Below are positions 1-48,414 of a DNA stretch of 64,000 nt, in pieces. The notes beneath the pieces are model-generated. The model saw nothing but the letters and a program-made list of their open reading frames with translations. It was not told where the DNA came from and made no database searches. The position numbers and the translations under genes are program-made. Location of the stretch: NCBI RefSeq assembly GCF_964213995.1, contig NC_135816.1, positions 46,748,001-46,812,000 on the forward strand. The letters are read 5' to 3'. This stretch comes from Mustelus asterias. Lineage: Eukaryota. Positions within the stretch are counted from its first letter, which is position 1, and each line of letters starts with the position of its first letter.

Positions 1-1524
1 AGTTCCCAAGAGTTGGTAGGCCCCCATGCATAGTTCACACTACATACTTTTCAATAAAAAAAATCATATTTCAGAATGAAAAATGAGATGCTGCTTTGCT
101 AGCATTTTCAAACTATCATTTTAATATTTCATTGTTTCACACTGAACTCATTAGTGTTAACAATGTGATTTAGTAGTGTCCTGAAATTTCACTTTTAAAA
201 AATACACATTACTGGTTATTTTTAATTAAAATAAACCATTTAGGTGTGACCCATATGCTTTAAAAATAACACGTTAATTTTCCTTATATAGACTGGCATA
301 TCTGAATACACAGTTCCATCTGCATTGCAATCCGTGTTGCTTTTTTCCAAAAGTGGTACAATAAATTGCAACTACGCCCAGTATGAAATACAGGATTTCA
401 ACTGAAAGCAATCAAAGCATCTCACATCTATTACTGGAACCACACCCATATTTAAACACAGTATTCCTGGATAAACCAGTAAACAAGTTGGTACAGGTAA
501 GGACAGCTTTGGCCCATCCTGCTTCCACTACCCACAACATCCTTTTCCTCATTTCCCTCTAATACAACAGCAGATATTATTGTACTATATATTATTTTTA
601 CAATTCTGTATTGTTTTACAAACTTCCCTTCCAATCCCCTACTTTTAAGACTGAGAAGGCCAGATTTTTCCTCAAATTAGTCCTTATTCCTGGTGGGCAG
701 AAACCAAAGCTTTGGCTCTGAATTATGATACGCACATTCAATGCAAAGAAGGTAACCTCACCCCACTCCAATCTCGTTGCTTGCTGTCTCTAGACTAGGC
801 CATTCTAACACTCCTGACCAGCTTCACATCTTACAGCATCCATAAGGTTGAAGTTATCTATTGCCTTTGTTAGCTCAAGACTGGCCTCCTATCTTCCATT
901 CAAGATAAACTCCCAAATCTCTACTGCCTGTAAGAACTTCAAGGCCCATTCACCCATTACTCCTGTAAGCATAAGAACAAGTATTATAAGAGCTGGTATA
1001 AAGATGGTTGTGGCCATGGAAGGAGCTTTCACATCAAGGTCTGTCATCAGATTGTTAGTTGGCCTGTGAATCCTTCCACTACTTCACTCTATTCCCTAAT
1101 GGACGAATGTTGTTTTGTATCTGCACAATCAGTCCTTTGACATTAAGAATAAGCTTCATGGCTCTCCTCCAGGGACTGAATGCCCCCCTTGTTCCTCAAA
1201 ATAACCAAAAATGAACCGTACTCATCATACAGTCTGAGCAAAATACTGCACAGTTTTAGCATATCATTAAACACAGATGTTATCTGATTTGTACCTTATT
1301 CCCCATATAGTTCAATATTTTATTTGCTTAATTGCTGCTCCAGTGTCTCAGCATGCAAAACAGTGTTTACTAATCCATAGATCTTTGTCAATGAAACTCC
1401 CTAGACATTTCAGTCCCCCTTTATGATGCATGTAAATTGCCCATTTCTTTTACGCCTATCTGTATTGATTAAAAAAAACAAAGAGAACAGAAGTAGCTGA
1501 CGGCATTCATAATTGTCTGGACAT

Positions 1525-1920
1525 TTGAAAAGAAAGACTTGCATTTGTATAGTGCCTTCCATGACCTCTTGTAAAGTGTTTGGAATATTCTATGAATATT
1601 CCTTTTAAGTGCGGTTGTTGCTGAAATGTAGGAAACACCTCAGCCAATTTCCATACATCAAGGTCCCAGACACAGCAATATGATAAATAGTCTGTTTTTG
1701 GCTGTTGATGGAGAATAAACATTGGTCACGGCACCAGGGATAACTCCTCTCCTCCTCTTCAAAAATAGTATCACGGGATGTTTTACTCAGTGCAGTATTC
1801 CCTTAGTGTTGCAGTGGGGAATCAGCCTTGATTTTTATGCTCAGGTCTCTGGGGTGCAATTTGAATGCACAACTTTCTGACTGAGAGGCAAGAGTGCTAT
1901 CCACTGAGCCACAGCCGACA
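1525..1920 (-). mobile_element. Old Deu-domain-like SINE (SacSINE1-like); related copies at ~11600-11990 and ~50790-51235
   Basis: Three mutually similar decayed copies (TGTAGGAAACAC.GCAGCCAATT, AATAG..ATGGGATCTTTTAC) with a tRNA-like head on the - strand. The family name is recalled, not verified. Confidence 0.55.
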
Positions 1921-3299
1921 ATGCAAACCTATGTCTGAAATAGCAAGCCATTCTGGTGCGGTATAAAATGCATGATAATTGAAGTGGTACAACACACTTC
2001 TGAATACACTACGTAGATATGAACACCTTGGTGACACCATGAAACATTTTCTGCTGGAAATTATAAATATTGAAATGAGCAAGGAATTGCCTGCTTACCT
2101 CTTATCAAATATACAGACAGAGCTATTATGATACATATTCACAATCTAAACCTCAGAAGAGCATTAGAACTTGAAGTCAACCAACCCTGAACCAAAATGA
2201 CCTTCATCTCACTCCAGATTCAGGATTACTATCCATGCTATCTGTCTCTTTTTATTTTATTCTTTGGCACTGGCCAAGCTAGGATTCATCATCCCTCTTG
2301 GCCCTTGAACAGAGTGGCTTGCTGGGCCATTTTAGAGTCAACCACATTTCTGTGGATCTGGAGTCACATGTAGACCAGACCGGATAAGGACGGCAGATTT
2401 ATTTTCTTGAAGGGCATTAGTGAATTATGACAATGGATGATAGCTTCCAGATTTTTTTTATGAATTTGAATTTAAATTCCACCAGCTTCCATGGTGGGAT
2501 TTGAACACATGTCTCGAGTTAATTTTTCTAGACTTCTGGAGTATTAGTCCAGTAAGACTGCTGTTACACCAACATCTCCACCTGTTGATCAGGTTCAATG
2601 GCCCAGTTTGAAATTATCACATAGCATTGCTATTATTGGGTCTTCACTGCAGGCCTACATATCCAGGAAGTTTCAGAAATTATTTGACTATATTTCACGA
2701 AGCACAATTTTAAATGGCAAATATCTAAAACAAATTGAGAATCAATATATCGTTATTAATAATTTAATGCAATTTTGCAACTGTATTTTTTTTCAAATTG
2801 CAAAGTTCATAGCATCTTCTGGTTCATGATAACTGCTCAATAACAGTGACACGACACCACAAGCTTTTCGGTTCCAGATATTGATTCATGCTCACTACAT
2901 GACACCATGGATCAATGAGATGCCATAATTAATTTGACAGAAATTTGGCTAGTCTGTATGCTGCCAATTTTCTTAGTCTACTGATATTCATTTTAAGCCC
3001 TGTGGTTTATTGAATAAATCTATATATTTTAAAACTTTAGCTCACACCAAAGAGCTCACAACAGGGCAACAACACGTGGTCAGGTAACTGAAAGCATACT
3101 GTTACTTCCAAAGAAAATAGACCATCACTTCACATCCTCATTAATTGAACCACCAACCAAATGGTCTTCCTGTTCTTTCCCTCACCTGCCTGCCATTTAA
3201 ATATACTCATCAAGGAAACTCATCAATTGCTGTCAGCATTAGCAGTGATGTTACACTCCAAATTTCCAACCATATAGATTAGCAAACATTGATAGGTCA

Positions 3300-4070
3300 A
3301 ACGTCAACAACTTGAGCTGCACAGATGACACTGCACTTGCTGCAGTGTCAGAAGAGGCTGCACTTGCTGCAATGTCAGAAGAGGCACTACTGGAAATTGT
3401 AAACAAAGTAAAAATGCAGAAGACAGATTACGAATGTGTGTGAAGAGGACCAAGAGAATGGTGATCTAGAGACCTAATGCTGGAAGTAAAAACTGAAGCA
3501 AATGGATCAGTCCTGGAACAACTGAAAAAGTCCACATGCCTTGGGCAGATTATCACAGATAATGGGTAATGTGATTGCGAAATCCGAAGGAGAATTGGAT
3601 TGGCCAAGACCAGCTTTGACAAATTGAAAGATATTAACTGAAATTGAACTTGAATCTTAGGATAACAATACTGAGATGCTCCTATTTATCATCTACATTA
3701 CATGCTTCAGAGACATAGTCGACTGATATGAGGATTTAATTTGGGATGTGGACATGTAGGAGGATGCTCTACATATTGTAGACAGACAGAAGGACTAATG
3801 AGAAACAGCTGGATATGGCCGCAAAAAAAAGGAAATTAGCGCACAAAGAGAGAAAGGTACAATATTTTGGTCATACAATTGGAGCAGTCAATAGGCAGAA
3901 TTATTGGAAAGATCAACAGAAAACGCAGGAGGAGAAGAAAATGGATGATGGGTATAATAGACTGGATGCAGTTGATCTAAATGGAATGCGTATGGGCAGC
4001 ACAGGGCAAACAGGTGGAAACCCATGGCAGTCAAGCTTCTGGAAAGAAGATGACACCAACAAACAACACT
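3300..4070 (+). mobile_element. Decayed RTE-like LINE 3' region
   Basis: Remnant frames resembling ADDTAL, CLGQIITDNG.CDCEIRRRIGLAKTSF and KVQYFGH, with many stops. Includes a 27-bp tandem duplication at 3331-3384. Confidence 0.55.
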
Positions 4071-5118
4071 AGCAAATTGATGAAAGATTTGAGATTAATG
4101 TAATAGTAGATTTATGGATGTTCGCCTTTTGCATTTCATTTTACAAATAATTGCAAAAGGAAAAGTAATGGTAATGCACTGCAACAACAACCTCAAAAGC
4201 TTGCTATTTGTCATACATCTATTTTTAATCTTCGGTATTTAAAATGTTTACATCATATTAACTCAAATCATTTAAGTGCCTTATGTGAATGATCAAGCAG
4301 GACCACTTCTTAGCGATACATTTTAATAAAAGCAGGGAACACACAAACATGCATCCTATTCACCTCAAAGGCCACTTTGGTTGTGAACCGAACTCCTTTA
4401 AATCTTCAAACCTCACTCTTTACAGACAATTGCCTTTTTATTAGTCTACTCAATTTTTAAGCCGATGCCATAAAAATTGTAAAAAGAAACCCTACTTTTT
4501 TAGTTGTTATTTTATTAAATTGTAACCAAAATCTTAAAATTGGGCAACGCCGTATCCACAAGTGACTAAGAGCACGCTGTAATTTCCAAAGCGGTGACAC
4601 TTTGCTGTCCCAACTATTTAAATCAACAGATTTTTTGTTAGAAGAATACAAAATGTGCATTTACAGAGATACTGGCTGATGAAATCTGGACAGGAATTAG
4701 GGATTTTGTTTTTTTAAAAAGCGAATCATGTTCCCTCTGATCATTTGCACTATTGGGTGGAATCAAACAAAAGGAGAAAGTCAACGGGCAAACAGCTTCG
4801 AGCAATCGATGAGCAAGAAAATCAACTCAAAACTAAAACATTTGGCAATAATTGGTCCTTCTTAAACGCGGCTTCTGCCACATTTTCGGCACTGAAATTA
4901 TTGGAAGCTCTTGCTGGTTTGTAAAATACTCCACAAACTACGAGCTGCGGACTTTTCCTCCAGATCAGCCTGAAACGAGGGGATCTGAAGATTGTCAGAA
5001 CAAAAAAAAACACAGTCCCAGAGACAAGGAAAAGAAAGTCCCGAGGGCCGGAGTCAGACAAAAGACTCCCGGGTGGGTGCCCGGTCACTCTGTGTAAACA
5101 ACAGCCGGCAACACTTAC

Positions 5119-5199
5119 CCAAAACACTATGTTGAAGCCGAACAAAACATATTTAACGCAGCAACTAACTTCAGGTCCTTTGAAGTGTTTCCCGGACAT
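5119..5199 (-). CDS. tspan17: TspanC8 tetraspanin, first coding exon (tetraspanin-17 by synteny; TSPAN5 is the close paralog)
   Basis: ATG at 5199 gives MSGKHFKGPEVSCCVKYVLFGFNIVFW (27 codons), then a phase-0 donor TGG|GTAAGT. Matches the TSPAN5/17 N-terminus. The order SNCB-EIF4E1B-TSPAN17 and the orientations match the known vertebrate block. The gene continues off the left edge. Confidence 0.85.
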
Positions 5200-5920
5200 G
5201 GTGAGCTGAGGAGGGAGAGGGAGGTAAACAGTAAAACCCCAGAGCCGGCCAGCCAGCCAGCCGCCGCCGCCTTCACTGAGGCTCAGCAGCGACCATCAGA
5301 AACCAGGCTCCGCCACCGCATCGGGACAAGCGAGCGGACAAACATCGGTCTCCGCTCAAGCCGGGGGACGGGGGTGGGGGGGGGAAGGCGACGACACACC
5401 GATCCCGCCTCACAGCTCCATCCCGTTATTCAGCCTCTGTGTTTCACCCAGCCAGCCGGCCTCCAGCAGCGCCACCACCGGCGCCGCCATCGAGCATATC
5501 AGCGCCAGTGCGCCTGCGCCTCCCAGCGGTGTGCACGCGCCGCGTCTGCACGGCTCCAAATTGGGGGGCGGAGAGGGGGCGCGGCCGCTCGGGACCTGCG
5601 CGTGCGCCTCAACCGGGGCGGGGCAGGTTGGGCGCGTGCGCCTCAGCCGGGGTGGGGCAGGTTGGGGGCGTGCGCCTCAGCCGGGGAGGGGCAGGTTGGG
5701 GCGGGCGCCTCAGCCGGGGAGGAGGAAGTGGGGCGTGCGCCTCAGCCGGGGAGAGGGCGGACGGTGAGGTGGTGCGCGTGCGCCTTAGCTGGGGCGGGGG
5801 AAGGTGCGGTTCTGCCGGAGAGGGGCGGGGCGACACTGAGGTATGCGCGTGCGCCTTGGCGGGGGAAGAGAGGGAAAGGGAGTATGCGCGCGCGCGCGTG
5901 TGTGATTCAGCTGGGGAAGG
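5200..5920 (-). promoter_or_regulatory. CpG-island promoter/5' UTR of tspan17 with GC boxes and NRF1-like motifs
   Basis: Abrupt GC- and CpG-rich segment directly upstream of the ATG, with GGGGCGGGG boxes and GCGCGTGCGC/TGCGCCTGCGC motifs. Confidence 0.8.
5597..5916. repeat. Degenerate promoter minisatellite, about 7-8 units of ~33-40 bp
   Basis: Recurrent core GCGTGCGCCTCAGCCGGGG followed by G-runs (e.g. AGGGGCAGGTTGGGG). Confidence 0.8.
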
Positions 5921-7617
5921 TGCTCTTGTTGTAAGGGCGAGTGACAGGGAATATGGGATGAACATCATATCTTACATTGAAAAGACCCTAAACACAAGAA
6001 GCCAGATGGGGACAGCAATAGAAAAACCAGATGCTATGTACAGGCAGTTCCACCAAAACCAGTAGCAGCAATTTAACCAATCTATGAACCAGAAATGAGC
6101 TGCAAGGCATCAGGCAACCAGATTACAGCTGTGCTAGTTTAAAGTTCAGCTGAGAACTAACCAGTCTCCTAGTTACACAATTTAAAAACCTCAATCTGCT
6201 GAGAACACTTCATTTTTACAAAACCTTAATTTCAAATTATCAAATCCATTCAATAGACTACCAACCTGTCACACAGGAAACCACAAATCAGAGACTGAGA
6301 TAACTAATCTGTTGAATTGCATTACCTTTATCTGTATCTAAATTTTTGAATGGGTGAATGAGTGAGGCAGAGTGTGTGTGATGTTACATTTAATTTGTGG
6401 CAAGAGAGAATAAATACACACAAAAGCTTGCTGCTGAATTATTTATTTGGAATACACACTCCAACCTCTTTCCTCACAGAACATATTACTCACAGGCAAT
6501 CAGAGAACACACATTCTGTCCATGACAAGGCATAGGCTAATTTATATCCAGAACTATGACAATTATTTGAATTCAAATTGGCAGCACCAATGCTTAAATG
6601 TACCATTTCTACCAGACAGATTTACCTTCAGCTTTTAGCAGTTCTAGTTTAGTTCTGCAAATTCATTTGCGTTTTTCAATTTTGAGTTTTGATTACATAC
6701 TCTATTCCCAAACCTGCTCTCTAATCTTGTTTTCTAATAAGTGGTGGTCATACAGACTACAAAGACTGGCTAATTTTCTTCCCCATATAATCTTCAAAAT
6801 GTCCCCTATCCCCGTAGATGACTGTCTGATCTGCTAAAAGGAGATTGATGTCTATTCCTTTTCAAAATCCAGGTAAAACTAAAAAGAGGAGAAGTTCTTT
6901 TCTACCTAACCCCCACCTCCCCAACTACTAGATTGTCACTATATTTATAATTTAATTGCTAATCTCTTCTAACACCTCCCAAGCTGCAAGTGAAGATATT
7001 ATTCAAAGCAGTCATGTGCCATGAGAAACAATTGCTCACATGGTACTGCACATAGTATAGCTACAATTCAAAACATCTTCCAAAATTAACAAAATGATTC
7101 CCTGCAGTTACAGTCAGAGGGAAAGCAGACTAATATTCAGAGATGATGCAATCCATTGGTCCTTGAGCTCTAATCAGTTATTTGGACTATATTTCATCAG
7201 CCAATCTGCAAGTAGTAATACTTTAATTCAAAGTTTAGAAATGGAATACATCATTTAAACACTATCAACAATTACAGCTGCATTCAAAATAGAAATCTAA
7301 TTATTTGCATTTTGTGTTTGAACTATAATGAAAGACTACAGCCCAGTGTATATTATAATAGACTTCCGGGGTTCATTTTAATCTTATGATTAATTTCTAG
7401 ATACTCATCTTGAAAAGCAATTGCCTGATGTCTATTTGTCTCACACTGAGCCTTGAAGAGAAGTATTGGTGAAAATTGAAATCCCATACTTGCACAAGAA
7501 CAATATTTGCCTCATTGCAACAGCTAAATTTTTAATTGAATAATTTAGTACAATACTGATTTAAGTGCTGTGCATGTTGTTTATACAGCTTTAAAGTTTG
7601 GCTCAATTCAAGACACC

Positions 7618-29394: not shown

Positions 29395-30560
29395 CTAAGG
29401 TCTTTGACAAGGTACAGCGGTTGTTGCATGAGGTTAAATGATACGGGATCCAGGGTGAGGTAGCTAAATGGATACAAAATTGGCTTGATGACAGAAGCCA
29501 GAGGGTGGTTGTAGAGGGTTGTCTTTCAAACTGGAGGCTTGCGACCAGCAGTGTGCCTCAGGGATCAGTGCTGGGTCCACTGTTATTTGTCATTTATATA
29601 AATGATTTGGATGAGAATATAGGAGGCATGGCTAGTAAGTTAGCAGATGACACCAAGATTGGTGGCATAGTGGACAGCAAAGAAAGTTATCTCGGATTGC
29701 AATGGGATCTTGATCAATTGGGCCAGTGGGCTGATGAATGGCAGATGGAGTTTAATTTAGATAAATGCGAGATGATGCATTTTGGTAGATTGAATCAGGA
29801 CAGGACTTACTCAGTTAATAGTAGGGCATTGGGGAGAGTTACAGAACAAGGAGATCTAAGGGTACATGTTCATAGCTCCTTGAAAGTGGAGTCACAGGTG
29901 GACAGAATGGTGAAGAAGGCATTCAGCATGCTTGGTTTCATTGGTTAGAACATTGAATACAGGAGTTGGGCCATCTTGTTGAAGTTGTACAAGACATTGG
30001 TAAGGCCACACTTGGAATACTGTTTACAGTTCTGGTCACCCTATTATAGAAAGGATAATATTAAACTAGAAAGAGTGCAGAAAAAAATTACTAGGATGCT
30101 ACTGGGACTTGATGGTTTGAGTTATAAGGAGAGGCTGGATAGACTGGGACTTTTTTCTCTGGAGCGTAGAGGGCTGAGGGGTGATCTTATAGAGGTCTAT
30201 AAAATAATGAGGGACATAGATCAGCTAGATAGTCAATATCTTTTCCCAAAGGTAGGGCTGTCTAAAACTAGAGGGCATAGGTTTAAGGTGAGAGGGGAGA
30301 GATACAAAAGTGTCCAGAGGGGCAATTTTTTCACACAGAGGGTGGTGAGTGTCTGGAACAAGCTGCTAGAGGCTGTTGTAGAGGCGGGAACAATTTTGTC
30401 TTTTAAAAAGCATGTAGGCAGTTACATGGGTAAGATGGATATAGAGGGATATGGGCCAAATGCGGGCAATTTGGTCTAGCTTTGGGGTTTAAAAAAAAGG
30501 GTGGCATGGATAAGTTGAGCCGAAAGGCCTGTTTCCATGCTGTAAATCTCTATGACTCTA
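29395..30560 (+). mobile_element. 5'-truncated CR1 LINE
   Basis: VPQGSVLGP...LADDTK and VRPHLEY...FFTQRVV frames with an internal stop; 3' end CTCTATGACTCTA. Confidence 0.92.
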
Positions 30561-36132: not shown

Positions 36133-36296
36133 AAACAGTAAGAAGTCTCACAACACCAGGTTAAAGTCCAACAGCTTTATTTAGTAGCACAAGCACAAGT
36201 GACTTGTGCTACCAAATAAACCTGTTGGACTTTAATCTGGTGTTGTGAGACTTCTTACTGTGCTTACCCCAGTCCAACGCCGGCATCTCCACATCA
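36133..36296 (+). mobile_element. Penelope-derived fold-back element inserted in CR1
   Basis: Same arms and tail. TSD TCGGTCATA (36124-36132, 36297-36305); removing the insert restores the CR1 sequence. Confidence 0.88.
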
Positions 36297-36501: not shown

Positions 36502-38518
36502 CATAGAACATAGAACAGTACAGCACAGAACAGGCCCTTCGGCCCACGATGTTGTGCCGAGCTTTATCTGAAACCAAGATCAAGCTATCCCACTCCCTAT
36601 CATCCTGGTGTGCTCCATGTGCCTATCCAATAACCGCTTAAATGTTTCTAAAGTGTCTGACTCCACTATCACTGCAGGCAGTCCATTCCACACCCCAACC
36701 ACTCTCTGCGTAAAGAACCTACCTCTGATATCCGTCCTGTATCTCCCACCACGAACCCTATAGTTATACCCCCTTGTAATAGCTCCATCCACCCGAGGAA
36801 ATAGTCTTTGAACGTTCACTCTATCTATCCCCTTCATCATTTTATACACCTCTATTAAGTCTCCCCTCAGCCTCCTCCGCTCCAGAGAGAACAGCCCTAG
36901 CTCCCTCAACCTTTCCTCATATGACCTACCCTCCAAACCAGGCAGCATCCTGGTAAATCTCCTCTGCACTCTTTCCAGCGCTTCCACATCCTTCTTATAG
37001 TGAGGTGACCAGAACTGCACACAATATTCCAAATGTGGTCTCACCAAGGTCCTGTACAGTTGCAGCATAACCCCACGGCTCTTAAACTCCAACCCCCTGT
37101 TAATAAAAGCTAACACACTATAGGCCTTCTTCACAGCTCTATCCACTTGAGTGGCAACCTTTAGAGATCTGTGGATATGGACCCCAAGATCTCTCTGTTC
37201 CTCCACAGTCTTCAGAACCCTACCTTTGACCCTGTAATCCATATTTAAATTAGTCCTACCAAAATGAATCACCTCACATTTATCCGGGTTAAACTCCATT
37301 TGCCATTTTTCAGCCCAGCTTTGCATCCTATCTATGTCTCTTTGCAGCCTACAACAGCCCTCCACCTCATCCACTACTCCACCAATCTTGGTGTCATCAG
37401 CAAATTTACTGATCCACCCTTCAGCCCCCTCCTCTAAGTCATTAATAAAAATCACAAAGAGCAGAGGACCAAGCACTGATCCCTGCGGCACACCGCTAGC
37501 AACCTGCCTCCAATCTGAAAATTTTCCATCGACCACCACCCTCTGTCTTCGGTCAGACAGCCAGTTACCTATCCAATCGGCCAACTTTCCCTCTATCCCA
37601 CACCTCCTCACTTTCATCATAAGCCGACCATGGGGGACCTTATCAAACGCCTTACTAAAATCCATGTATATGACATCAACTGCCCTACCTTCATCAACAC
37701 ACTTAGTTACCTCCTCAAAAAATTCTATCAAATTTGTGAGGCACGACTTGCCCTTCACGAATCCGTGCTGACTATCTCGGATTAATCCGCATCTTTCTAA
37801 ATGGTCGTAAATCCCATCCCTAAGGACCCTTTCCATCAATTTACCAACCACCGAAGTAAGACTAACCGGTCTATAATTATCAGGGTCATTTCTATTCCCT
37901 TTCTTAAACAGAGGAACAACATTCGCCATTCTCCAGTCCTCTGGCACCATCCCCGTGGACAGCGAGGACCCAAAGATCAACGCCAAAGGCTCTGCAATCT
38001 CATCCCTTGCCTCCCACAGAATCCTAGGATACATTTCATCAGGCCCAGGGGACTTATCGACCTTCAGTTTATTCAAAACTGCCAAGACATCCTCCCTCCG
38101 AACATCTATTTCCTCCAGCCTATTAGCCTGTAACACCTTCTCTTCCTCAAAAACATGGCCCCTCTCCTTGGTGAACACTGAAGAAAAGTATTCATTCATC
38201 ACCTCGCCTATCTCTACTGACTCCATACACAAGTTCCCACTACTGTCCTTGACCGGCCCTAACCTCACCCTGGTCATTCTTTTATTCCTCACATAAGAGT
38301 AAAAAGCCTTGGGGTTTTCCTTGATCCGACCCGCCAAGGACTTCTCATGTCCCCTCCTAGCTCTCCTAAGCCCCTTTTTCAGCTCATTCCTTGCTAACTT
38401 GTAACCCTCAATCGAGCCATCTGAACCTTGTTTCCTCATCCCTACATAAGCTTCCCTCTTCCTTTTCACAAGACATTCCACCTCTTTTGTGAACCATGGT
38501 TCCCTCACTCGGCCATTT
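36502..38518 (-). mobile_element. Young 5'-truncated CR1 LINE inserted antisense into another CR1
   Basis: Uninterrupted 642-aa RT reading frame (36580-38508; [21 protein letters not shown]) and a (TTCTATG)n tail at ~36502-36517. The host frame resumes on the far side. Confidence 0.95.
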
Positions 38519-40422
38519 CAGAAGATACAGCAGGATATAGATCGGTTGGAGACTTGGGCGGAGAGATGGCAGATGGAGTTTAATCTGGACAAATGTGAGG
38601 TAATGCATTTTGGAAGGTCTAATACAGATAGGAAATATACAGTAAATGGCAGAACCCTTAAGAATATTGATCGGCAGAGGGATCTGGGTGTACAGGCGCA
38701 CAGGTTACTGAAAGTGGCAACACAGGTGGAGAAGGTAGTCAAGAAGGTGTACGGCATGCTTGTCTTCATTGGCTGGGGCATTGAGTTTAAAAATTGGAAA
38801 ATCATGTTGCAGCTTTATAGAAACTTAGTTAGGCCGCACTTGGAATATAGTGTTCAATTCTGGTCGCCACACTACCAGAAGGATGTGGAGGCTTTGGAGA
38901 GGGTACAAAAAAGATTTATCAGGATGTTGCCTGGTGTGGAGGGCATTAGCTATGAGGAGAGGTTGGAGGAACTTGGTTTGTTCTCACTGGAATGACGGAG
39001 GTTGAGGGGCAACCTGATAGAAGTCTACAAGATTATGAGGGGCATGGACAAAGTTAATAGTCAGAAGCTTTTTCCCAGGGTGGAAGTGTCAATTATTTGG
39101 GGGCGTAGGATTAGGGTGCGAGGGGCAAGATTTAATGTAGATGTATGAGGCAAGTTTTTTACACAGAGGGTGGTGGGTGCCTGGAACTCGCTACCGGGGG
39201 AGGTAGTGGAAGCAGATACGATAGTGACTTTTAAGGGGTGTGTTGACAAATACATGAATCGGATGGGAATGGAGGAATATGGTCCCCGCAAGAGTAGGGG
39301 GTTTTAGTTCAGTCGGGCAGCATGGTCGGTGCAGGCTTAGAGGGCCGAAGGGCCTGTTCCTGTGCTGGAATTTTCTTTGCTCTTTGTTCTTTATTAGAAA
39401 CAAGTGAATGAAATACTGCGTAAAGGTGGTTAGATTGCCAAAACGTCTTCTCCTGCCTTAAATGGCTTCTATGTTACTGTTACTATGTTAACATCCATCT
39501 GTCTGCGCAGAATTTAGTGTCATGCATTATCAGGGAAAATTAGCTACTGACATGCTAAGAATTCTTTTTCCATTATTCAACTGTATATTTTGTGGTGACA
39601 GGATTTCTGATCAATTTTTACCAAATTTAGTGTGTCTATGTCAGAACTTCCGAACCACTGACATGAACATCATTAAAAAGAGCAGCCAGAATATAGGGAC
39701 AGGAATAGACCATTCAGTCCCTCAGGCTGATTCTGCCATTCTATTACAACATGCAAATAGGCAACATTTCATTCCTTTTGCCTCTTGGCAGTTCAGGAGG
39801 TTTTCAAATATCCCAATTAAATTAATGGGCCTACAATGAATTCAGATAAATAAATGATTATATTAACAGCATTCCAGAGACACAGAAGTGAAATAAAAAA
39901 CTCATAAGATATATTTCAGATACCCATTTTTAAATTAAATGTTGGTCAGATAATGCCTCATTTTATGGAGCTGGTCCTATCTCTTCCCATATCCATCAAG
40001 CTGCAATATGGAAGTTATCCATTTGTTGTCTATAAACACAAATCCATCCTTCGGAATAGGGAGCAAAGCCACACAATAATTAGCAACACTTTAGAGTTCT
40101 GTTAGAAAGTCTGACATATCTCCTGAATGCTATACAACAATGGATATCTGAAGTGCACTTTAACATGGTTGTGCTGTGAGCAGAACGACATGTCTGATTA
40201 TACCGGATTTTTGCATCGAGAAGTGTAGTTTACAATCTGGATTGCCAAGCAAGCTTCACAGTCTTTCACTTGACCATCCTTACAATTTGCGTCAGTTTCA
40301 AACCTCATACAGAGAAAAGGCTGAGGCAGAACAAATTATTCATGACAGGAGTCAGGATGAATCAGCAACAGACATTGATCATATTTTATATTCTACTGCA
40401 CTGAGGGCCTTAGGAACATTAT

Positions 40423-42155: not shown

Positions 42156-42796
42156 TAACAATATGATGATAGAGAAAATAATGGAGCTTAAGACAAATCT
42201 GTAGGATGTGATATCCTCCACCCTAAAGGATTAAGAAAAAAAAACACAGGTTACAAAATTGCAGATGATTTAGTCATAATTTTCGAAAGCTCTCTTGATT
42301 CAAAATTTATCCAGTTGGTTAATAAAATTGCAAATGTCACTTCATTATTTAAGGTTAGAGGAAGGGAGGAATCTTGTTAGGCCTAGTATTTAGCAACATA
42401 TCATGAAATTATATATTCCTCCTTTGGGAAATTATGTCCAAATATTGAGCCGTAACAATGCTCCGGATTCAATAATAGTAATTGGTGGACTTGTATTAGT
42501 CTGCTGAATAATATCTGAATAAAAATCAGAAATTTAAACCATCGTCTTTCCAGGTCATTTAACAAATGCACTCGCAATTTCTTCACCAGATTTAAAAAAA
42601 ATCTCAGGTAATGGAAACTGTCAACAATCAGAAAGAGGAGAGAAAGGTAGAATTATTTTCCATCAACTGTTTTCATGGAGCTTGACATTTTCTGCCCCAT
42701 ATAGTACAAGATATAGCAGTGAAGCATTTATATCCATTGGTATGAGTAGTAGGTCAAACTTTAGCATTGGTTTTATTATTGATCAATATTATAACC

Positions 42797-43112
42797 TGAT
42801 GCGCTACTCAAACACGAGGCCTGATGCTCGGTAAATGAAAGGCTTGTATTTACTGTAATGAAGCAGCCAGAAATTATATACACTATCCCAGACTGAAGGG
42901 GTCCCGGCCAGAGCAGGGACTTTTATACCTCTCCCAGGAGGCGGAGCCCGACTGGGATGTGCCACAACACTACAGTACAAAGGTGTAACAACCCCACCCT
43001 AACCCCAACAGCAACAATAGCACAACCCAACAGTAGCATATGTACATCCTTGTAGTACTGGCCAGCCCCTGGCTCAGTACTATCCAGTGGGAACCAACGA
43101 TGGTTCACCACA
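42797..43112 (-). repeat. 3' LTR of the Gypsy element
   Basis: Direct repeat of 47216-47531, preceded on the - strand by the PPT. Confidence 0.97.
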
Positions 43113-43174: not shown

Positions 43175-46100
43175 CTATAAGTTCAGACGGTCAGGGGGAC
43201 CGCACCGTCGTTGTGACCTCCTCAATACCGGCGGTGACACCGGAGTAGGCACTTGCGGTGGCGTCCTCCCCAAGGCAGCGTCCAGCTGTTCTTCCACGGA
43301 CTCACAGGCCGGTTGACCCTGAGGTGACGGTAGTCCATGGGGTCCTGACACGCCCTGCAGTGGCGACCATCTTCTGGGCTCAGGCAAGCTGTACATGGGA
43401 GTAAAAGGGTTAAGCAGTGGTCCCGATGCTGCCCGCGCCGTGTCCGGGGAAGAAACAAGAGTTAAAGGGTTTGTAACAGGGGGTATGGGAGCGACAGGAG
43501 TTGCTACGTCCCCTGCTGGTGCCAGGTCTCGGATCGAGACCGTGTCCTCTCGCCCGTCAGGGTATGCCACATAGGCATACTGAGGGTTGGCGTGGAGGAG
43601 ATGGACCTGTTCGACCAACGGGTCGGACTTGCGGGCCCTTACATGTCGCCGCAGGAGGACGGGTCCTGAGTACGTCAACCAAGATGGTAATGAGGTCCCA
43701 GAGGAAGACTTCCGAGGGAATGAGAACATCCTCTCGTGCGGAGTAGCATTGGTTGCCGTACACAGGAGGGAGCGAATAGAATGGAGCGCATCAGGGAGCA
43801 CCTCTTGCCAACGGGAGACTGGAAGACCTTTTGACTTCAACGCCAGTAAGACAGCCTTCCAGACTGTAGCATTCTCACGTTCCACCTGTCCGTTACCCCT
43901 AGGGTTGTAGCTCGTGGTCCTACTAGAGGCAATCCCGTATGAGAGCAGGAATTGCCTCAAGTCATCGCTAATGAACGACGAGCCCCTATTGCTATGGATG
44001 TAGCCGGGGTACCCGAACAGGGTAAAGAGATCACGAAATGCCTTGATAACCGTGGCAGCGGATGTATCAGAGCAGGGAACAACAAAAGGGAACCGAGAGT
44101 ACTCGTCAATGATATTAAGGAAGTACACATTCCGATCTGTTGAGGGAAGGGGGCCCTTAAAATCGACACTCAGTCTCTCGAAGGGACGAGTGGCCTTGAC
44201 TAAATGTGCCCGGTCAGGTCGGTAAAAGTGCGGTTTGCACTCCGCGCAAACCCGACAGCTTCTTGTTACTGACCTGACGTCCTCCACCGAGTAAGGCAGG
44301 TTGCGGGCTTTTGTAAAGTGGTAGAGCCGAGTGACCCCAGGATGGCATAGGTCATTATGGAGGGCCTGCAAACGGTCCTCCTCTATACTGGCGCATGTTC
44401 CACGCGAGAGGGCATCCGAGGGCTCATTGAGTTTCCCTGGACGGTACATGATGTCGTAGTTATAGGTGGAGAGTTCAATTCTCCACCGCAAGATCTTGTC
44501 ATTCTTGATCTTGCCCCTCTGCGTGTTGTTAAACATGAACGCCACGGACCGCTGGTCCGTGATCAGGGTGAACCGTTTTCCCACCAAGTAATGGCGCCAG
44601 TGCCTAACGGCCTCCACAATGGCCTGGGCCTCCTTTTCCACCGCCGAATGCCGAATTTCGGGGCCTTGGAGGGTGCGGGAAAAAAATGCGACGGGCCTGC
44701 CCGCCTGGTTAAGTGTGGCGGCCAGGGCGAAATCAGATGCATCGCTCTCCACCTGAAAGGGGATGGACTCGTCAACAGCGTGCATCGTAGCTTTCGCGAT
44801 GTCGGCTTTCAATTTATCGAAGGCCAATCGGGCCTCTGGTGTTAGGGGAAAAGTCGTGGACTTAATGAGCGGACGGGCTTTGTCCGCGTAGTTGGGAACC
44901 CACTGCGCATAATAAGAGAAGAAGCCTAAGCACCTTCTCAGTGCTTTTGCACTAGCAGGCAAGGGAAGTTCAGAAAGGGGGCGCATACGGTCTGGATCAG
45001 GGCCAATGACCCCGTTTTCCACCACGTATCCTAGGATGGCTAAACGGCGCGTACGAAACACACACTTCTCCCTGTTGTAGGTCAAGTTCAGGCGAGATGC
45101 AGTGCGTAGGAAGTTCAGGAGATTCGTGTCGTGGTCCTGCTGGTCATGGCCGCAGATGGTGACATTATCCAGGTACGGGAAGGTAGCCCGCAGCCCGTTC
45201 TGGTCCACCATTCGGTCCATAGCACGCTGGAAGACCGAGACCCCATTGGTGACACCAAAGGGAACCCTGAGAAAGTGATACAAGCAACCATCCGCCTCAA
45301 AAGCCGTGTATTGTCGGTCCTCTGGGCGAATGGGGAGTTGGTGGTAGGCAGACCTGAGGTCTATGGTGGAGAACACCCGGTACTGCGCAATCTGATTGAC
45401 CATATCAGATATGCGCGGGAGGGGATACGCATCCAGCTGCGTATATCGGTTAATGGTCTGACTATAGTCAATGACCATCCGGGGTTTGTTCCCGCTCTTG
45501 ACCACCATGACCTGCGCCCTCCACGGACTAGCGCTGGGTTGTATGATCCTTTCTTTGAGGAGCCGCTGAACCTCAGATCTAATGAAGATCCGATCCTCAG
45601 CGCTGTAACGCCTACTTTTAGTCACGATGGGCTTGCAGCCTGGCACAAGATTCTGGAACAAGGAGGGTGTGGTGATCTTCAGCGTCGAGAGGCTGCAGGC
45701 GGGGCGCGTTGGGCAATTTGGAGGCTGCTGCTGTTTTCCCACTGCCAGTGAAGGGAGTGGCCCACCATACTGTAGGATTACACTCCTCAAGTGGACCATG
45801 AAGTTTAGTCCGAGAAGTATTGGCGCGCAAAGATACGGCAACACGAGGAGCTTGAAACGCTCGTAAACTGTACCTTGCACCTTCAAAGTTACCACGCAAC
45901 TCCCCAGCACGGCAACAGACCGGGACCTTGATGCCATAGAGATTGTCTGTTTGGCAGGTTGAATCTGGAGTCCACAACGCTTCACAGTGTCTGGGTGGAT
46001 AAAGCTCTCAGTGCTCCCGCTGTCAAACAGACAATAAATCACGTGGTCATTTACCTGGATATTCATCATAGATTTGTCAAGTCTATGAGGCTTGGCCTGG

Positions 46101-47164
46101 TCCAGGATGATCGACGCCACCGTTGGTTCATGAGCGCCACTGCAGGCAGCTGAAATCAATGAGGAGGACCCCTGCTGGTCGTTCGCGGTCAGTGTCGACC
46201 AACATGGCCGCTCCCATGAGTCGCACGTGGGTGAGGGCGCCAAACTCAGCGACCCCTGGTGGTCACACACCTCCGACTCTGTCGACCGTAATGGCGTCGT
46301 CCTGGCCTCGCACGTGGACGAACCCCTCGATGACTTCGACGACGAAGACCCGAGCTCTGAAGAATCGCAGGCCGCACTGCCGTTCCTGGGTTTAGATCGG
46401 CACACTTTCGAATAGTGCCCTTTCTTACCGCATGTGGTGCACAACACAGCTTTAGCGGGACACCGTTGCCGAGTATGCTTCGCTCCCCCACAGAAGTAGC
46501 ACCGCGGGCCGCCCGGGGCTGCTGCCGTCGTCTGGCCCGTGTGTGAGCACGCCATTACGCAGCATTTCGAACCCGAGGGACGAGGAGGGATTGGCGACTG
46601 CTCCTGCCACGTTGTCTCCACATGGTCCTCCGGATATAATACTAAGCTTTTGGAGGCCGTCTCGAGCATCTCCGCTAGCTCGATGGCCTGGGTAAGATCA
46701 AGGTTACCCTTCTCCAACAGTTTAAGTCGAATGTACGACGATCCGACCCCCGCCACAAATGCATCTCGGGCGAGGTCGTTCATACTCTGCTCAGCCGACA
46801 CAGCTTTGCAGTTACAGCCCCTGGCTAGCTGTAGGAGCTCGTTCGCATATTCCTCCATCGTTTCGCCAGACTGCCGTCGTCGAGTGGCTAGGAGGTAACG
46901 AGCGTGTATTTCATTGGGTGGTTTGATATAGCGCTTCTTCAGAAGCTCGAGGGCCTTAGTATAATTGGTGGCCGCACGGATCGCGAGGTAGACAGTGTCG
47001 CTTACCCTCGCATGGAGGACCCGGAGTCTGTCATCATCTGTGGTGACCGCTGCGGAGGCTGCCAGGTAGTCATCGAAACACTTCAGCCAGTGGTCGAAGG
47101 TGTTAGAAGCGCCCACCGCAGGTGGATCTAGTGTAAGGCGTTCCGGCTTCAGGATTTGCTCCAT
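43175..47164 (-). CDS. Gag-Pol polyprotein, 1329 aa (gag with two Zn knuckles, protease, RT, RNase H, integrase)
   Basis: First ATG after the 5' LTR at 47164 (MEQILKPE). CYFCGGAKH and CTTCGKKGH knuckles; LFDSGS protease; IDLRSAYHQ, PFG and YLDN in RT; SDASD RNase H; HHCC and VDFKGP...VERE integrase. The PR-RT-RH-INT order is Ty3/Gypsy. Confidence 0.95.
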   Translation of the reverse strand: MEQILKPERLTLDPPAVGASNTFDHWLKCFDDYLAASAAVTTDDDRLRVLHARVSDTVYLAIRAATNYTKALELLKKRYIKPPNEIHARYLLATRRRQSGETMEEYANELLQLARGCNCKAVSAEQSMNDLARDAFVAGVGSSYIRLKLLEKGNLDLTQAIELAEMLETASKSLVLYPEDHVETTWQEQSPIPPRPSGSKCCVMACSHTGQTTAAAPGGPRCYFCGGAKHTRQRCPAKAVLCTTCGKKGHYSKVCRSKPRNGSAACDSSELGSSSSKSSRGSSTCEARTTPLRSTESEVCDHQGSLSLAPSPTCDSWERPCWSTLTANDQQGSSSLISAACSGAHEPTVASIILDQAKPHRLDKSMMNIQVNDHVIYCLFDSGSTESFIHPDTVKRCGLQIQPAKQTISMASRSRSVAVLGSCVVTLKVQGTVYERFKLLVLPYLCAPILLGLNFMVHLRSVILQYGGPLPSLAVGKQQQPPNCPTRPACSLSTLKITTPSLFQNLVPGCKPIVTKSRRYSAEDRIFIRSEVQRLLKERIIQPSASPWRAQVMVVKSGNKPRMVIDYSQTINRYTQLDAYPLPRISDMVNQIAQYRVFSTIDLRSAYHQLPIRPEDRQYTAFEADGCLYHFLRVPFGVTNGVSVFQRAMDRMVDQNGLRATFPYLDNVTICGHDQQDHDTNLLNFLRTASRLNLTYNREKCVFRTRRLAILGYVVENGVIGPDPDRMRPLSELPLPASAKALRRCLGFFSYYAQWVPNYADKARPLIKSTTFPLTPEARLAFDKLKADIAKATMHAVDESIPFQVESDASDFALAATLNQAGRPVAFFSRTLQGPEIRHSAVEKEAQAIVEAVRHWRHYLVGKRFTLITDQRSVAFMFNNTQRGKIKNDKILRWRIELSTYNYDIMYRPGKLNEPSDALSRGTCASIEEDRLQALHNDLCHPGVTRLYHFTKARNLPYSVEDVRSVTRSCRVCAECKPHFYRPDRAHLVKATRPFERLSVDFKGPLPSTDRNVYFLNIIDEYSRFPFVVPCSDTSAATVIKAFRDLFTLFGYPGYIHSNRGSSFISDDLRQFLLSYGIASSRTTSYNPRGNGQVERENATVWKAVLLALKSKGLPVSRWQEVLPDALHSIRSLLCTATNATPHERMFSFPRKSSSGTSLPSWLTYSGPVLLRRHVRARKSDPLVEQVHLLHANPQYAYVAYPDGREDTVSIRDLAPAGDVATPVAPIPPVTNPLTLVSSPDTARAASGPLLNPFTPMYSLPEPRRWSPLQGVSGPHGLPSPQGQPACESVEEQLDAALGRTPPQVPTPVSPPVLRRSQRRCGPPDRLNL

Positions 47165-47215
47165 ACTCTCTCTTTTTTTTTTCTTCGACGAGAGTTTAAC
47201 GACAGTAAATAAAAT

Positions 47216-47531
47216 TGATGCGCTACTCAAACACGAGGCCTGATGCTCGGTAAATGAAAGGTTTTTATTTACTGTAATGAAGCAGCCAGTAATTATATAC
47301 ACTATCCCAGACTGAAGGGGTCCCGGCCAGAGCAGGGACTTTTATTCCTCTCCCAGGAGGCGGAGCCCGACTGGGATGTGCCACAACACTACAGTACAAA
47401 GGTGTAACAACCCCACCCTAACCCCAACAGCAACAATAGCACAACCCAACAGTAACATATGTACATCCTTGTAGTACTGGCCAGACCCTGGCTCAGTACT
47501 ATCCAGTGGGAACCAACGATGGTTCACCACA
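47216..47531 (-). repeat. 5' LTR of the Gypsy element
   Basis: Direct repeat of 42797-43112, upstream of the gag ATG. Confidence 0.97.
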
Positions 47532-47802
47532 TAACCTTGCTGATTTAGGAATTTGGATGAATCGGAAAATATCCCCATTTCAAATTGTTCAATCTCCATC
47601 ACAGGTTGTTTGGATGGCTGATCTATGAGATTGTTTTAAGACTGATGTAGCTTAAGTAGAACACTGTTTCATAAAGCACTTCTAGTACTATACCAACTCA
47701 AGTGTTTTCATGGGGTGTGAACTTCATTGGCAAGGCCAGGATTTGTTGTCTGTCCCTAATTGATCTTCAGGAAGGTGGCGGCGAACCACTGCAGTCCATC
47801 TG

Positions 47803-48414
47803 GTGTGGAGATGCCGGTGTTGGACTGGGCTGGGCATAGTAAGAAGTCTCACAACACCAGGTTAAAGTCCAGCAGGACTTTTTGGAATCACGAGCTTTCG
47901 GAGCACTGTTCCTTCATCAGGTGAGTGGAGAGGTAGGTTTCACAAATACAGCATATATAGACAAAGACACAATGTAAGATAATGGTTGGAATGTGAGTCT
48001 TTTCAAGGTGGCTGTTTCCTCCAAGGCGGCCTTCAAGACACACGACAACGCAGAATCACCGAGGAGAAACTGATAGCCAAGTTCCGCACACATGACGATG
48101 GTCTCAACCGGGATCTTGGGTTCATGTCACACTACATGTAACCCCCACCATTGGGCTTGGGCTTGCAAAATCCTGCTAACTGTCCAGGCTTGAGACAATT
48201 CACACCTCTTTAACCTGTGATAATCCCTCTCTCCACTTGCACTGTCTGTACCTGTAAAGACTCGCATTCCAACCATTATCTTGTAATTGTGTCTCTGTCT
48301 ATATATGCCGTGTTTGTGAAACCTAGCTCTCCACTCACCTGATGAAGGAGCAGCACTCCAAAGCTCGTGATTCCAAATAAATCTGTTGGACTTTAACCTG
48401 GTGTTGTGAGATAA
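47803..48414 (+). mobile_element. 5'-truncated Penelope-like element with an inverted pseudo-LTR
   Basis: 48019-48141 reads LQGGLQDTRQRRITEEKLIAKFRTHDDGLNRDLGFMSHYM*, resembling a GIY-YIG endonuclease C-terminus of Penelope-like elements. Flanked by inverted copies of the 3' terminal sequence. Possible TSD CTGGTGT (47800-47806, 48415-48421). Confidence 0.85.
47889..47923 (-). ncRNA. Minimal type I hammerhead motif with one stem II mismatch (partner copy at 48336-48369 has lost the G of GAAA)
   Basis: CAC-CUGAUGA-A-GGAAC(AGU)GCUCC-GAA-AGCU-C^GUG. Confidence 0.6.

Follow-up and report, generated by a model that had tools for sequence, protein, structure and literature searches.

Organization of the element

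The window, i.e., the whole stretch of 64,000 nucleotides that was analyzed, carries on its minus strand a complete Ty3/Gypsy element of 4.7 kb, and the feature of interest lies at the 5′ end of this element. The assignment to Ty3/Gypsy is based on TG...CA LTRs, a target duplication, a polypurine tract and the order protease, reverse transcriptase (RT), RNase H and integrase. The following parts were recognized:

47532–47536 (−): target-site duplication, upstream copy, GGTTA; this 5-mer recurs after the 3′ LTR
47216–47531 (−): 5′ LTR, 316 nt, TG...CA; direct repeat at a spacing of 4419 nt, with 6 differences from the 3′ LTR
47311–47346 (−): alternative promoter candidate, an AT-rich box (47346–47340) with TCAGT 31 nt further on, both of which we take to be promoter motifs
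47293–47299 (−): TATATAA, its first base 24 nt ahead of that of the paired segment; present in one of the four families compared below
47263–47275 (−): putative self-primer, 13 nt, with AATAAA at 47269–47264
47215–47262 (−): loop of 48 nt made up of the remainder of R, U5 and a spacer of 1 nt; it contains an internal hairpin
47202–47214 (−): putative primer-binding site without TGG, 1 nt after the CA of the LTR, complementary to the LTR segment
43175–47164 (−): single gag-pol ORF, 1329 aa
43113–43126 (−): polypurine tract, preceding the 3′ LTR
42797–43112 (−): 3′ LTR, 316 nt, TG...CA
42792–42796 (−): target-site duplication, downstream copy, GGTTA

The Gag encoded by the ORF has a double zinc knuckle and is followed, in the Gypsy order, by protease, RT, RNase H and integrase; env is absent. 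A Pfam search of the protein at E values up to 0.1 found neither of the chromodomain families PF00385 and PF24626, in agreement with the first-pass annotation, which had noted no evident chromodomain. The RT motif is YLDN instead of YxDD (about 45170–45185), a trait of the lineage described below. The catalytic triad of the integrase looks incomplete in comparison with relatives (about 43900–44200) though the ORF is open, and the copy in the window may therefore be inactive. The gag frame is also open for 59 codons 5′ of the ATG, across the primer segment, U5 and the binding site (47165–47341, minus strand), which is probably due to chance. A search with the junction motif found no second copy of the element in the window; each of the seven other matches had two mismatches.

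Directly upstream of the element there are long inverted repeats (47801–48411), and a related hairpin of 59 nt occurs at 36135–36261; both are probably degraded copies of mobile elements. ORFs resembling the RT of CR1-type LINEs were recognized by eye at 36580–38517 (minus strand), 29442–30479 (plus strand) and 38450–38995 (plus strand). A frame at 4822–5295 (minus strand) that contains MSGKHFKGPEVSCCVKY and lies beside a G+C-rich stretch presumably resembles the first exon of a tetraspanin gene. A scan of the window for bacterial promoters, a type not relevant to the element, returned nothing.

The leader is complementary to a segment of the LTR

The 5′ LTR (47531–47216) ends with GCGCATCA and is followed by a single A (47215) and then by TTTTATTTACTGT (47214–47202). 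The latter is the exact complement of ACAGTAAATAAAA, located within the LTR at 47275–47263, so that a loop of 48 nt lies between the two arms, and in the whole window the 13-mer is found at just these two places. The binding site has a G+C content of 2/13, and no TGG occurs within 10 nt of the LTR end. The first-pass annotation had claimed that the element is without a tRNA primer-binding site and that its leader 13-mer complements its own LTR across 48 nt, and this description is borne out. It had also placed the LTR 13-mer 24 nt after a TATATAA, a distance that is correct from start to start, the actual gap being 17 nt.

Counting complements that start 0–5 nt after the LTR, none of 3000 dinucleotide shuffles of the LTR reached 13 bp (mean 4.8, maximum 11). 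When no LTR end is assumed, the 13-bp pairing is still the longest inverted repeat between the start of the LTR and the ATG, and it was equalled in 0 of 400 shuffles. Two of the differences between the LTRs, at 42846 and 42843, fall at this site, where the 3′ LTR has AATACA and the 5′ LTR AATAAA. Its copy of the primer segment (42856–42844) has one mismatch to the leader, leaving a match of only 10 bp.

Relatives of the element

Out of 6644 candidates a search with the RT–RNase H region found 1309 proteins with E values up to 1e-30, some of which lie outside the lineage of the element. The best 120 of the 1309 are 59–86% identical to the element and include proteins from rays, sharks, a sea anemone, a sea cucumber, a tunicate, a damselfly, Trichuris and Trichinella; the closest named relatives among the matches listed are from sharks and rays (73–83% identity over RT–RNase H), which points to a cartilaginous fish as the probable source of the window. 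The matched lineage proteins, the one from a tunicate included, mostly have a length of about 1100–1300 aa. Like the window ORF, 93 of the 120 clade proteins with an N-terminus long enough have the double zinc knuckle in Gag. Neither PF00385 nor PF24626 was found in any of the best 120 of the 1309 relatives, and a local phmmer search for the chromodomain, an insensitive one with only 5 matches in the whole protein set, found it in 0 of 185 proteins. The RT motif ends in DN in 112 of the 183 proteins with at least 40% identity (64 have DD and 7 could not be parsed) and in none of 72 more distant ones. The named relatives thus comprise cnidarians, nematodes, an insect, an echinoderm, a tunicate, sharks and rays, and the lineage is a pan-animal, chromodomain-less one of Ty3/Gypsy.

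For the DNA context of such proteins a set of bacterial and archaeal genomes was scanned with an alignment of 12 proteins, which yielded eight loci (L001–L008). These are evidently eukaryotic contigs within metagenome-assembled genomes; L001–L007 are likely to be eukaryotic contamination because they carry animal-type LTR retrotransposons, several of them amid tandem repeats. By identity six of the eight belong to the lineage (L001–L005 and L007), L006 and L008 representing other clades and L008 being a short contig. The leader is included in L001, L002, L003 and L004, which make up three further families: L003 and L004 are members of one family that were inserted separately, with about 90–93% identity and a 5-bp duplication of its own for each, and L001 and L002 are circular contigs with a single LTR each. 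The terminal overlaps of the latter two look like single-LTR circles or collapsed repeats. Since L005 and L007 contain only the 3′ LTR, they fall outside the pairing test.

L005 and L007 are 86% identical to each other and have an ATTAAAA about 40 nt before the end of the 3′ LTR (about 7175–7190 and 7562–7575, respectively), placed as the paired hexamer is in the tested families. Within the RT of the lineage member in L007 there is, in opposite orientation, a Gypsy element of another clade (277–5896) with a TGG-starting site after its 5′ LTR. By tblastn no lineage members were found in the plasmid and phage collections; three plasmid records matched at 24–32% identity and the phages gave no match. 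A record of 5.3 kb filed as a Wolbachia plasmid (L009, NZ_CP087956.1) has genes for protease, RT and RNase H and an LTR-like stretch, and it resembles a circularized LTR retrotransposon of an insect. No usable leader could be read from homologous proteins that are extended at the N-terminus, as an extension of any kind was present in 7 of 184 and these were too degenerate.

The pairing covaries between families

A comparison of the leader and LTR sequences showed that all four relatives with a readable leader, i.e., three families beyond that of the window, have a perfect pairing of 13–14 bp with differing sequences. The paired segment is TAATGTAATAAAA in L001 (13 bp), TATTGTTGATTAAA in L002 (14 bp) and CTTAGTTGAATAAA in both L003 and L004 (14 bp). 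In the window element and the four relatives alike the pairing starts 1 nt after the CA of the LTR, the loops are 39–51 nt long, and there is no TGG near the LTR end (0 of 5 elements). The LTRs of different families give no blastn alignment, a leader matches the LTR of another family over just 4–8 bp, and seven paired positions vary between the families when these are anchored at the hexamer. All four families come from the inner part of the lineage.

For each element, none of 3000 shuffles attained the observed pairing length, the shuffle maxima being 11–12 bp. Because the LTR ends had to be deduced from a single LTR in L001 and L002, the test was rerun without an assumed end. In each element the pairing was again the longest inverted repeat between the start of the LTR and the ATG, equalled in 0 of 400 shuffles, and the second arm came after CA and one base. 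The control L006 from another clade has a self-match of only 4 bp, and a TGG site is present. This site complements the end of tRNA-Ser(GCU) as given in supplement 3 of PMC13524379. A comparison of the two 13-mers in family members had been proposed together with the first-pass annotation. It came out in favor of covariation in all four testable relatives; the complementarity is conserved and a TGG site is found in none of them.

In every copy with two LTRs (the window element, L003 and L004) the 5′ LTR matches the leader perfectly and the 13- to 14-mer of the 3′ LTR carries a single mismatch; the regions concerned are 42844–42856 in the window, 9688–9884 in L003 and 9768–9964 in L004. The probability that any LTR difference falls into the segment is 0.22, 0.31 and 0.49, respectively, for this small sample in which the window copy was picked for its match.

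A poly(A) hexamer at the end of the paired segment

The LTR arm of each of the four families terminates at most 1 nt from an A(A/T)TAAA hexamer, and in L002 the hexamer takes part in a compensated pair, ATTAAA with TTTAAT. In L003 and L004 a second AATAAA lies in the loop, 15 nt further on, and is uncovered by the leader. The first-pass annotation had proposed that the pairing, possible only at the 5′ LTR, hides the 5′ poly(A) signal and leaves the 3′ one free. With the hexamer at the end of the segment in all four families, such an occlusion is a plausible side function. On its own it is insufficient, because it supplies no primer and leaves the fixed offset of 1 nt from the LTR end unexplained. 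The window copy does not display a free canonical 3′ signal, because its 3′ LTR lacks AATAAA at this place.

RNA folding and promoter motifs

In the computed folds of an RNA that begins with the segment the duplex prevails, with pair probabilities of 0.65–1.0 in all four families. With 45 nt more at the upstream end the pair probability of the window duplex falls to about 0.05. In L001, L002 and L003 the duplex still forms with the longer 5′ end, and there folding does not fix the start. The motif YAKT, which we take to be initiator-like, falls within positions 1–6 of the segment in three of the four families, an observation made after the fact. Of the four families only that of the window has a TATA-like box upstream of the segment; L001–L004 showed none. 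Further upstream the window LTR has a better-spaced pair of TATA and TCAGT; the box of this pair reads TATAAAA in the 3′ LTR and AATAAAA in the 5′ LTR.

Priming in Tf1 has been reported to require a three-duplex "pretzel", i.e., two additional duplexes, in the part of 10.1101/2022.12.06.519325 available to us. A search for the two additional arms gave no sign of them in seven of eight arm tests, which were equalled by 111–412 of 500 shuffles; the U5 arm of L001 was the single one to beat the shuffles (0 of 500).

Phylogenetic placement

A fast tree of 109 RT–RNase H rows set the lineage apart. We then calculated a careful RT–RNase H tree of 47 rows, consisting of 37 of the 109 and 10 chromovirus-type rows and including amphibian sequences. 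The labels of the chromovirus rows derive from Pfam domains, the name of the host and the position in the tree, and those of the Mag-like rows from motifs and the primer site of L006, rather than from named elements. In this tree the lineage (13 rows), the chromoviruses (15 rows) and the Mag-like rows (5 rows) separate with support values of 100/100, 100/100 and 100/99, respectively. The trees are unrooted, the stem of the lineage is long, and the rows are without a named Tf1, sushi-ichi, Mag or Cigr-1 sequence.

With RT–RNase H the AU test did not reject a union of the lineage with nine fungal and vertebrate-type chromovirus rows (p = 0.058). The integrase was added after this result (RT–RNase H–integrase, 30 rows, 675 columns), whereby the amphibian rows were dropped because they have no contiguous integrase; in this tree, too, the lineage and the Mag-like rows are on different branches. 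With the larger data set a union with five fungal rows was rejected (p = 0.0001), and a union with all eight chromovirus rows was rejected more weakly (p = 0.029). A union with four Mag-like rows was not rejected (p = 0.07), and the Mag-like rows, which are about 28–30% identical to the window element in RT–RNase H, may be the nearest sampled group. A double zinc knuckle in Gag is a trait of Mag elements. The first-pass annotation had called the element Mag-like, a term that applies in a loose sense: its Gag carries the double zinc knuckle, and its pol branches separately from the Mag-like rows (100/100 and 100/99).

Discussion

The primer of an LTR element defines the DNA end, and its 3′ end must therefore fall within a few bases of the LTR end. 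In the elements studied here the only conserved complement at this position is the element's own LTR segment. By one published definition a self-primer pairs over 10 bp or more with the 5′ LTR, beginning 0–5 bp after the LTR (PMC6317226, in the part available); all five elements have 13–14 bp at an offset of 1. Judging by this anatomy, self-priming in some form appears very likely. The reading that we prefer is a Tf1-like self-priming from the 5′ end of the RNA in which the poly(A) hexamer would form the 3′ end of the primer, and we put its probability at roughly 0.78. The first-pass annotation had offered self-priming as one of two proposals; the covariation in four of four testable relatives and the missing TGG site support it.

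By analogy with Tf1, for which pairing of the first 11 bases with the binding site and cleavage by RNase H after base 11 are described (PMC7175516, in the part available), transcription would start at or near the 5′ end of the segment, at about 47275–47273. The first 11–14 nt of the transcript would fold back onto the leader, and the RNase H of the element, the domain of which is present, would cut at the junction of duplex and loop. The freed 3′-OH would then be extended through U5 and the remainder of R, and the strong-stop DNA would be transferred to the 3′ LTR via that stretch of R which lies between primer and poly(A) site. Synthesis of the plus strand would finally copy the primer back into the binding site, and in this way both arms would stay matched. 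With the hexamer as the 3′ end of the primer the 5′ poly(A) signal would be cap-proximal, base-paired and then cut off, so that occlusion would likely be a by-product or a second function of the same duplex.

The same complementarity could serve a self-priming that does not proceed from the 5′ tip of the RNA. Transcription would start further upstream, for example at the TCAGT (about 47313), or the priming segment would be its copy in the 3′ R region or on the second packaged RNA, cut directly after the hexamer. The TATAAAA/TCAGT pair in the window LTR has the textbook spacing, both LTRs contain the same segment, the duplex withstands a 45-nt extension of the 5′ end in three of four families, and the missing pretzel arms permit another geometry of cleavage. 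We nevertheless regard this as unlikely. The complementarity stops sharply at 13–14 bp in every family, as would be expected of a primer with a free 5′ end that is copied back; the upstream TATA is absent from the relatives, an upstream start disfavors the window duplex, and it is the 5′ LTR that matches perfectly in all three two-LTR copies. Still less probable, at about one chance in twenty by our estimate, is that the duplex just hides the 5′ poly(A) signal and another primer is used. The position of the segment at most 1 nt from the hexamer in all four families, the compensated pair of L002 included, would suit this, and so would the fact that the pairing is possible only where the leader follows the LTR. 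Yet there is no other primer site near the LTR end, a fixed offset of 1 nt from the CA would be unnecessary, L003 and L004 leave a second AATAAA uncovered, and the 3′ LTR of the window is without AATAAA.

Priming by a fragment of a host tRNA or by another small RNA, with the LTR match being secondary, has a precedent in the half-tRNA priming of some Copia lineages (PMC6317226, in the part available). The tRNA scans covered the window and the nine loci and found no tRNA genes to compare with the site. In the lineage studied here such priming seems highly improbable, since the binding site is very A/T-rich, has no TGG and changes in step with the LTR of its own family, unlike a site that is held by a conserved host RNA. 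Moreover, Rfam gave no match at E values up to 1 in 47100–47600. Finally, the arms are A/T-rich and the shuffle maxima of 11–12 bp come near the observed length, which could point to chance complementarity or to one decayed copy that has lost a normal primer site. The covariation refutes this reading, to which we give practically no weight: none of the 3000 and none of the 400 shuffles per element reached the observed pairing, the same anatomy recurs in four of four testable relatives, and the control is negative.

Under the preferred reading, self-priming from the 5′ end of the RNA, the lineage probably acquired self-priming independently of Tf1/sushi, because it is without chromodomain and pretzel arms and its pol lies outside the chromoviruses. 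An ancient shared origin with many losses is less favored. A more far-reaching reading is that of a large and ancient animal lineage of Gypsy in which self-priming evolved independently of Tf1/sushi and which would be previously undescribed; the hexamer would be the 3′ end of the primer, a single duplex of 13–14 bp would both silence the 5′ poly(A) signal and supply the primer without a pretzel, and the RT would often have YxDN and not YxDD. For this picture as a whole our confidence is tentative and stays somewhat below even odds.

Within Gypsy, self-priming has been taken as characteristic of a single subgroup of the chromoviruses and has served as an argument for common descent and for horizontal transfer (PMC6317226, in the part available). 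A second, apparently independent origin in Gypsy would, if true, weaken this argument; it would mean that tRNA-free priming can be reinvented, and it would explain some animal elements annotated without a primer site. The design with one duplex tests the need for a pretzel in the cutting of an RNA duplex by RNase H, and the overlap with the hexamer ties together two classic problems of LTR elements, namely how a primer is made and how the 5′ poly(A) signal is ignored. It has also been reported that 3′ tRNA fragments can target LTR elements via the tRNA site (PMC7472051, in the part available), and self-priming elements would be without the tRNA site that these fragments target.

Comparison with known systems

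We compared these findings with the available parts of PMC3601003, PMC6317226, PMC6238403, PMC6934838, PMC4600332, 10.1101/2022.12.06.519325, PMC5443660, PMC3670739, PMC5445492, PMC7175516, PMC5006619, PMC13524379 and PMC8556966. Within this scope no description of self-priming in a non-chromovirus animal Gypsy element was found. According to PMC6317226 self-priming is confined to Tf1/sushi, with Tcn1, and to the TAR lineage of plant Copia elements, and primer sites are described in the literature searched as unexplained in Skipper, fungal GalEa and bivalve TRIMs. YLDN gave no sequence match in the supplement rows of PMC6238403 and PMC8556966.

The Tf1/sushi chromoviruses (Tf1, Tf2, Tj1, Tcn1, MAGGY and sushi-ichi) resemble the lineage described here in that they have no tRNA site and carry the complement of an LTR segment just past the 5′ LTR, and the primer is of similar length (11 nt in Tf1). 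In contrast to them the lineage has no chromodomain or SH3_Tf2-1 domain and no conserved three-duplex pretzel, and its pol lies outside the chromoviruses. Judged from the sequences, membership in Tf1/sushi fails on the chromodomain, on the pretzel and, with the larger data set, on the phylogeny. The putative primer of the lineage ends in a poly(A) hexamer, and no such Tf1/sushi primer was found in the parts of the literature searched.

With the Mag lineage (clades A, B and C) the elements share a short single ORF, the double zinc knuckle of Gag and the missing chromodomain. They differ in that the Mag-like control L006 has a TGG site for tRNA-Ser, whereas TGG is found in none of five lineage elements, and in that the Mag-like rows form their own branch. 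Cigr-1, which we take to be about 4.2 kb long and to have short LTRs, a single ORF of some 1200 aa and a Gag of the Mag type, fits the lineage in size and Gag. Going by this description, the lineage is possibly the Cigr-1 clade or an unplaced MolGy clade, and an earlier remark on the primer site of Cigr-1 may exist in the older literature. In the supplement of PMC6238403, as far as available, Cigr-1 is filed under Mag; a description of the primer sites of Cigr-1 or MolGy elements was not found in the parts of the literature searched.

A parallel in the kind of evidence is provided by the TAR lineage of plant Ty1/Copia (Houba, Osr-1), for which self-priming unrelated to Tf1/sushi has been predicted from sequence (PMC6317226, in the part available). 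These elements belong to the Copia superfamily and live in plants, whereas the window element has the Gypsy order and its relatives animal hosts. In both cases self-priming is predicted at an equal level of evidence, and the TAR lineage thereby sets a precedent for independent origins.
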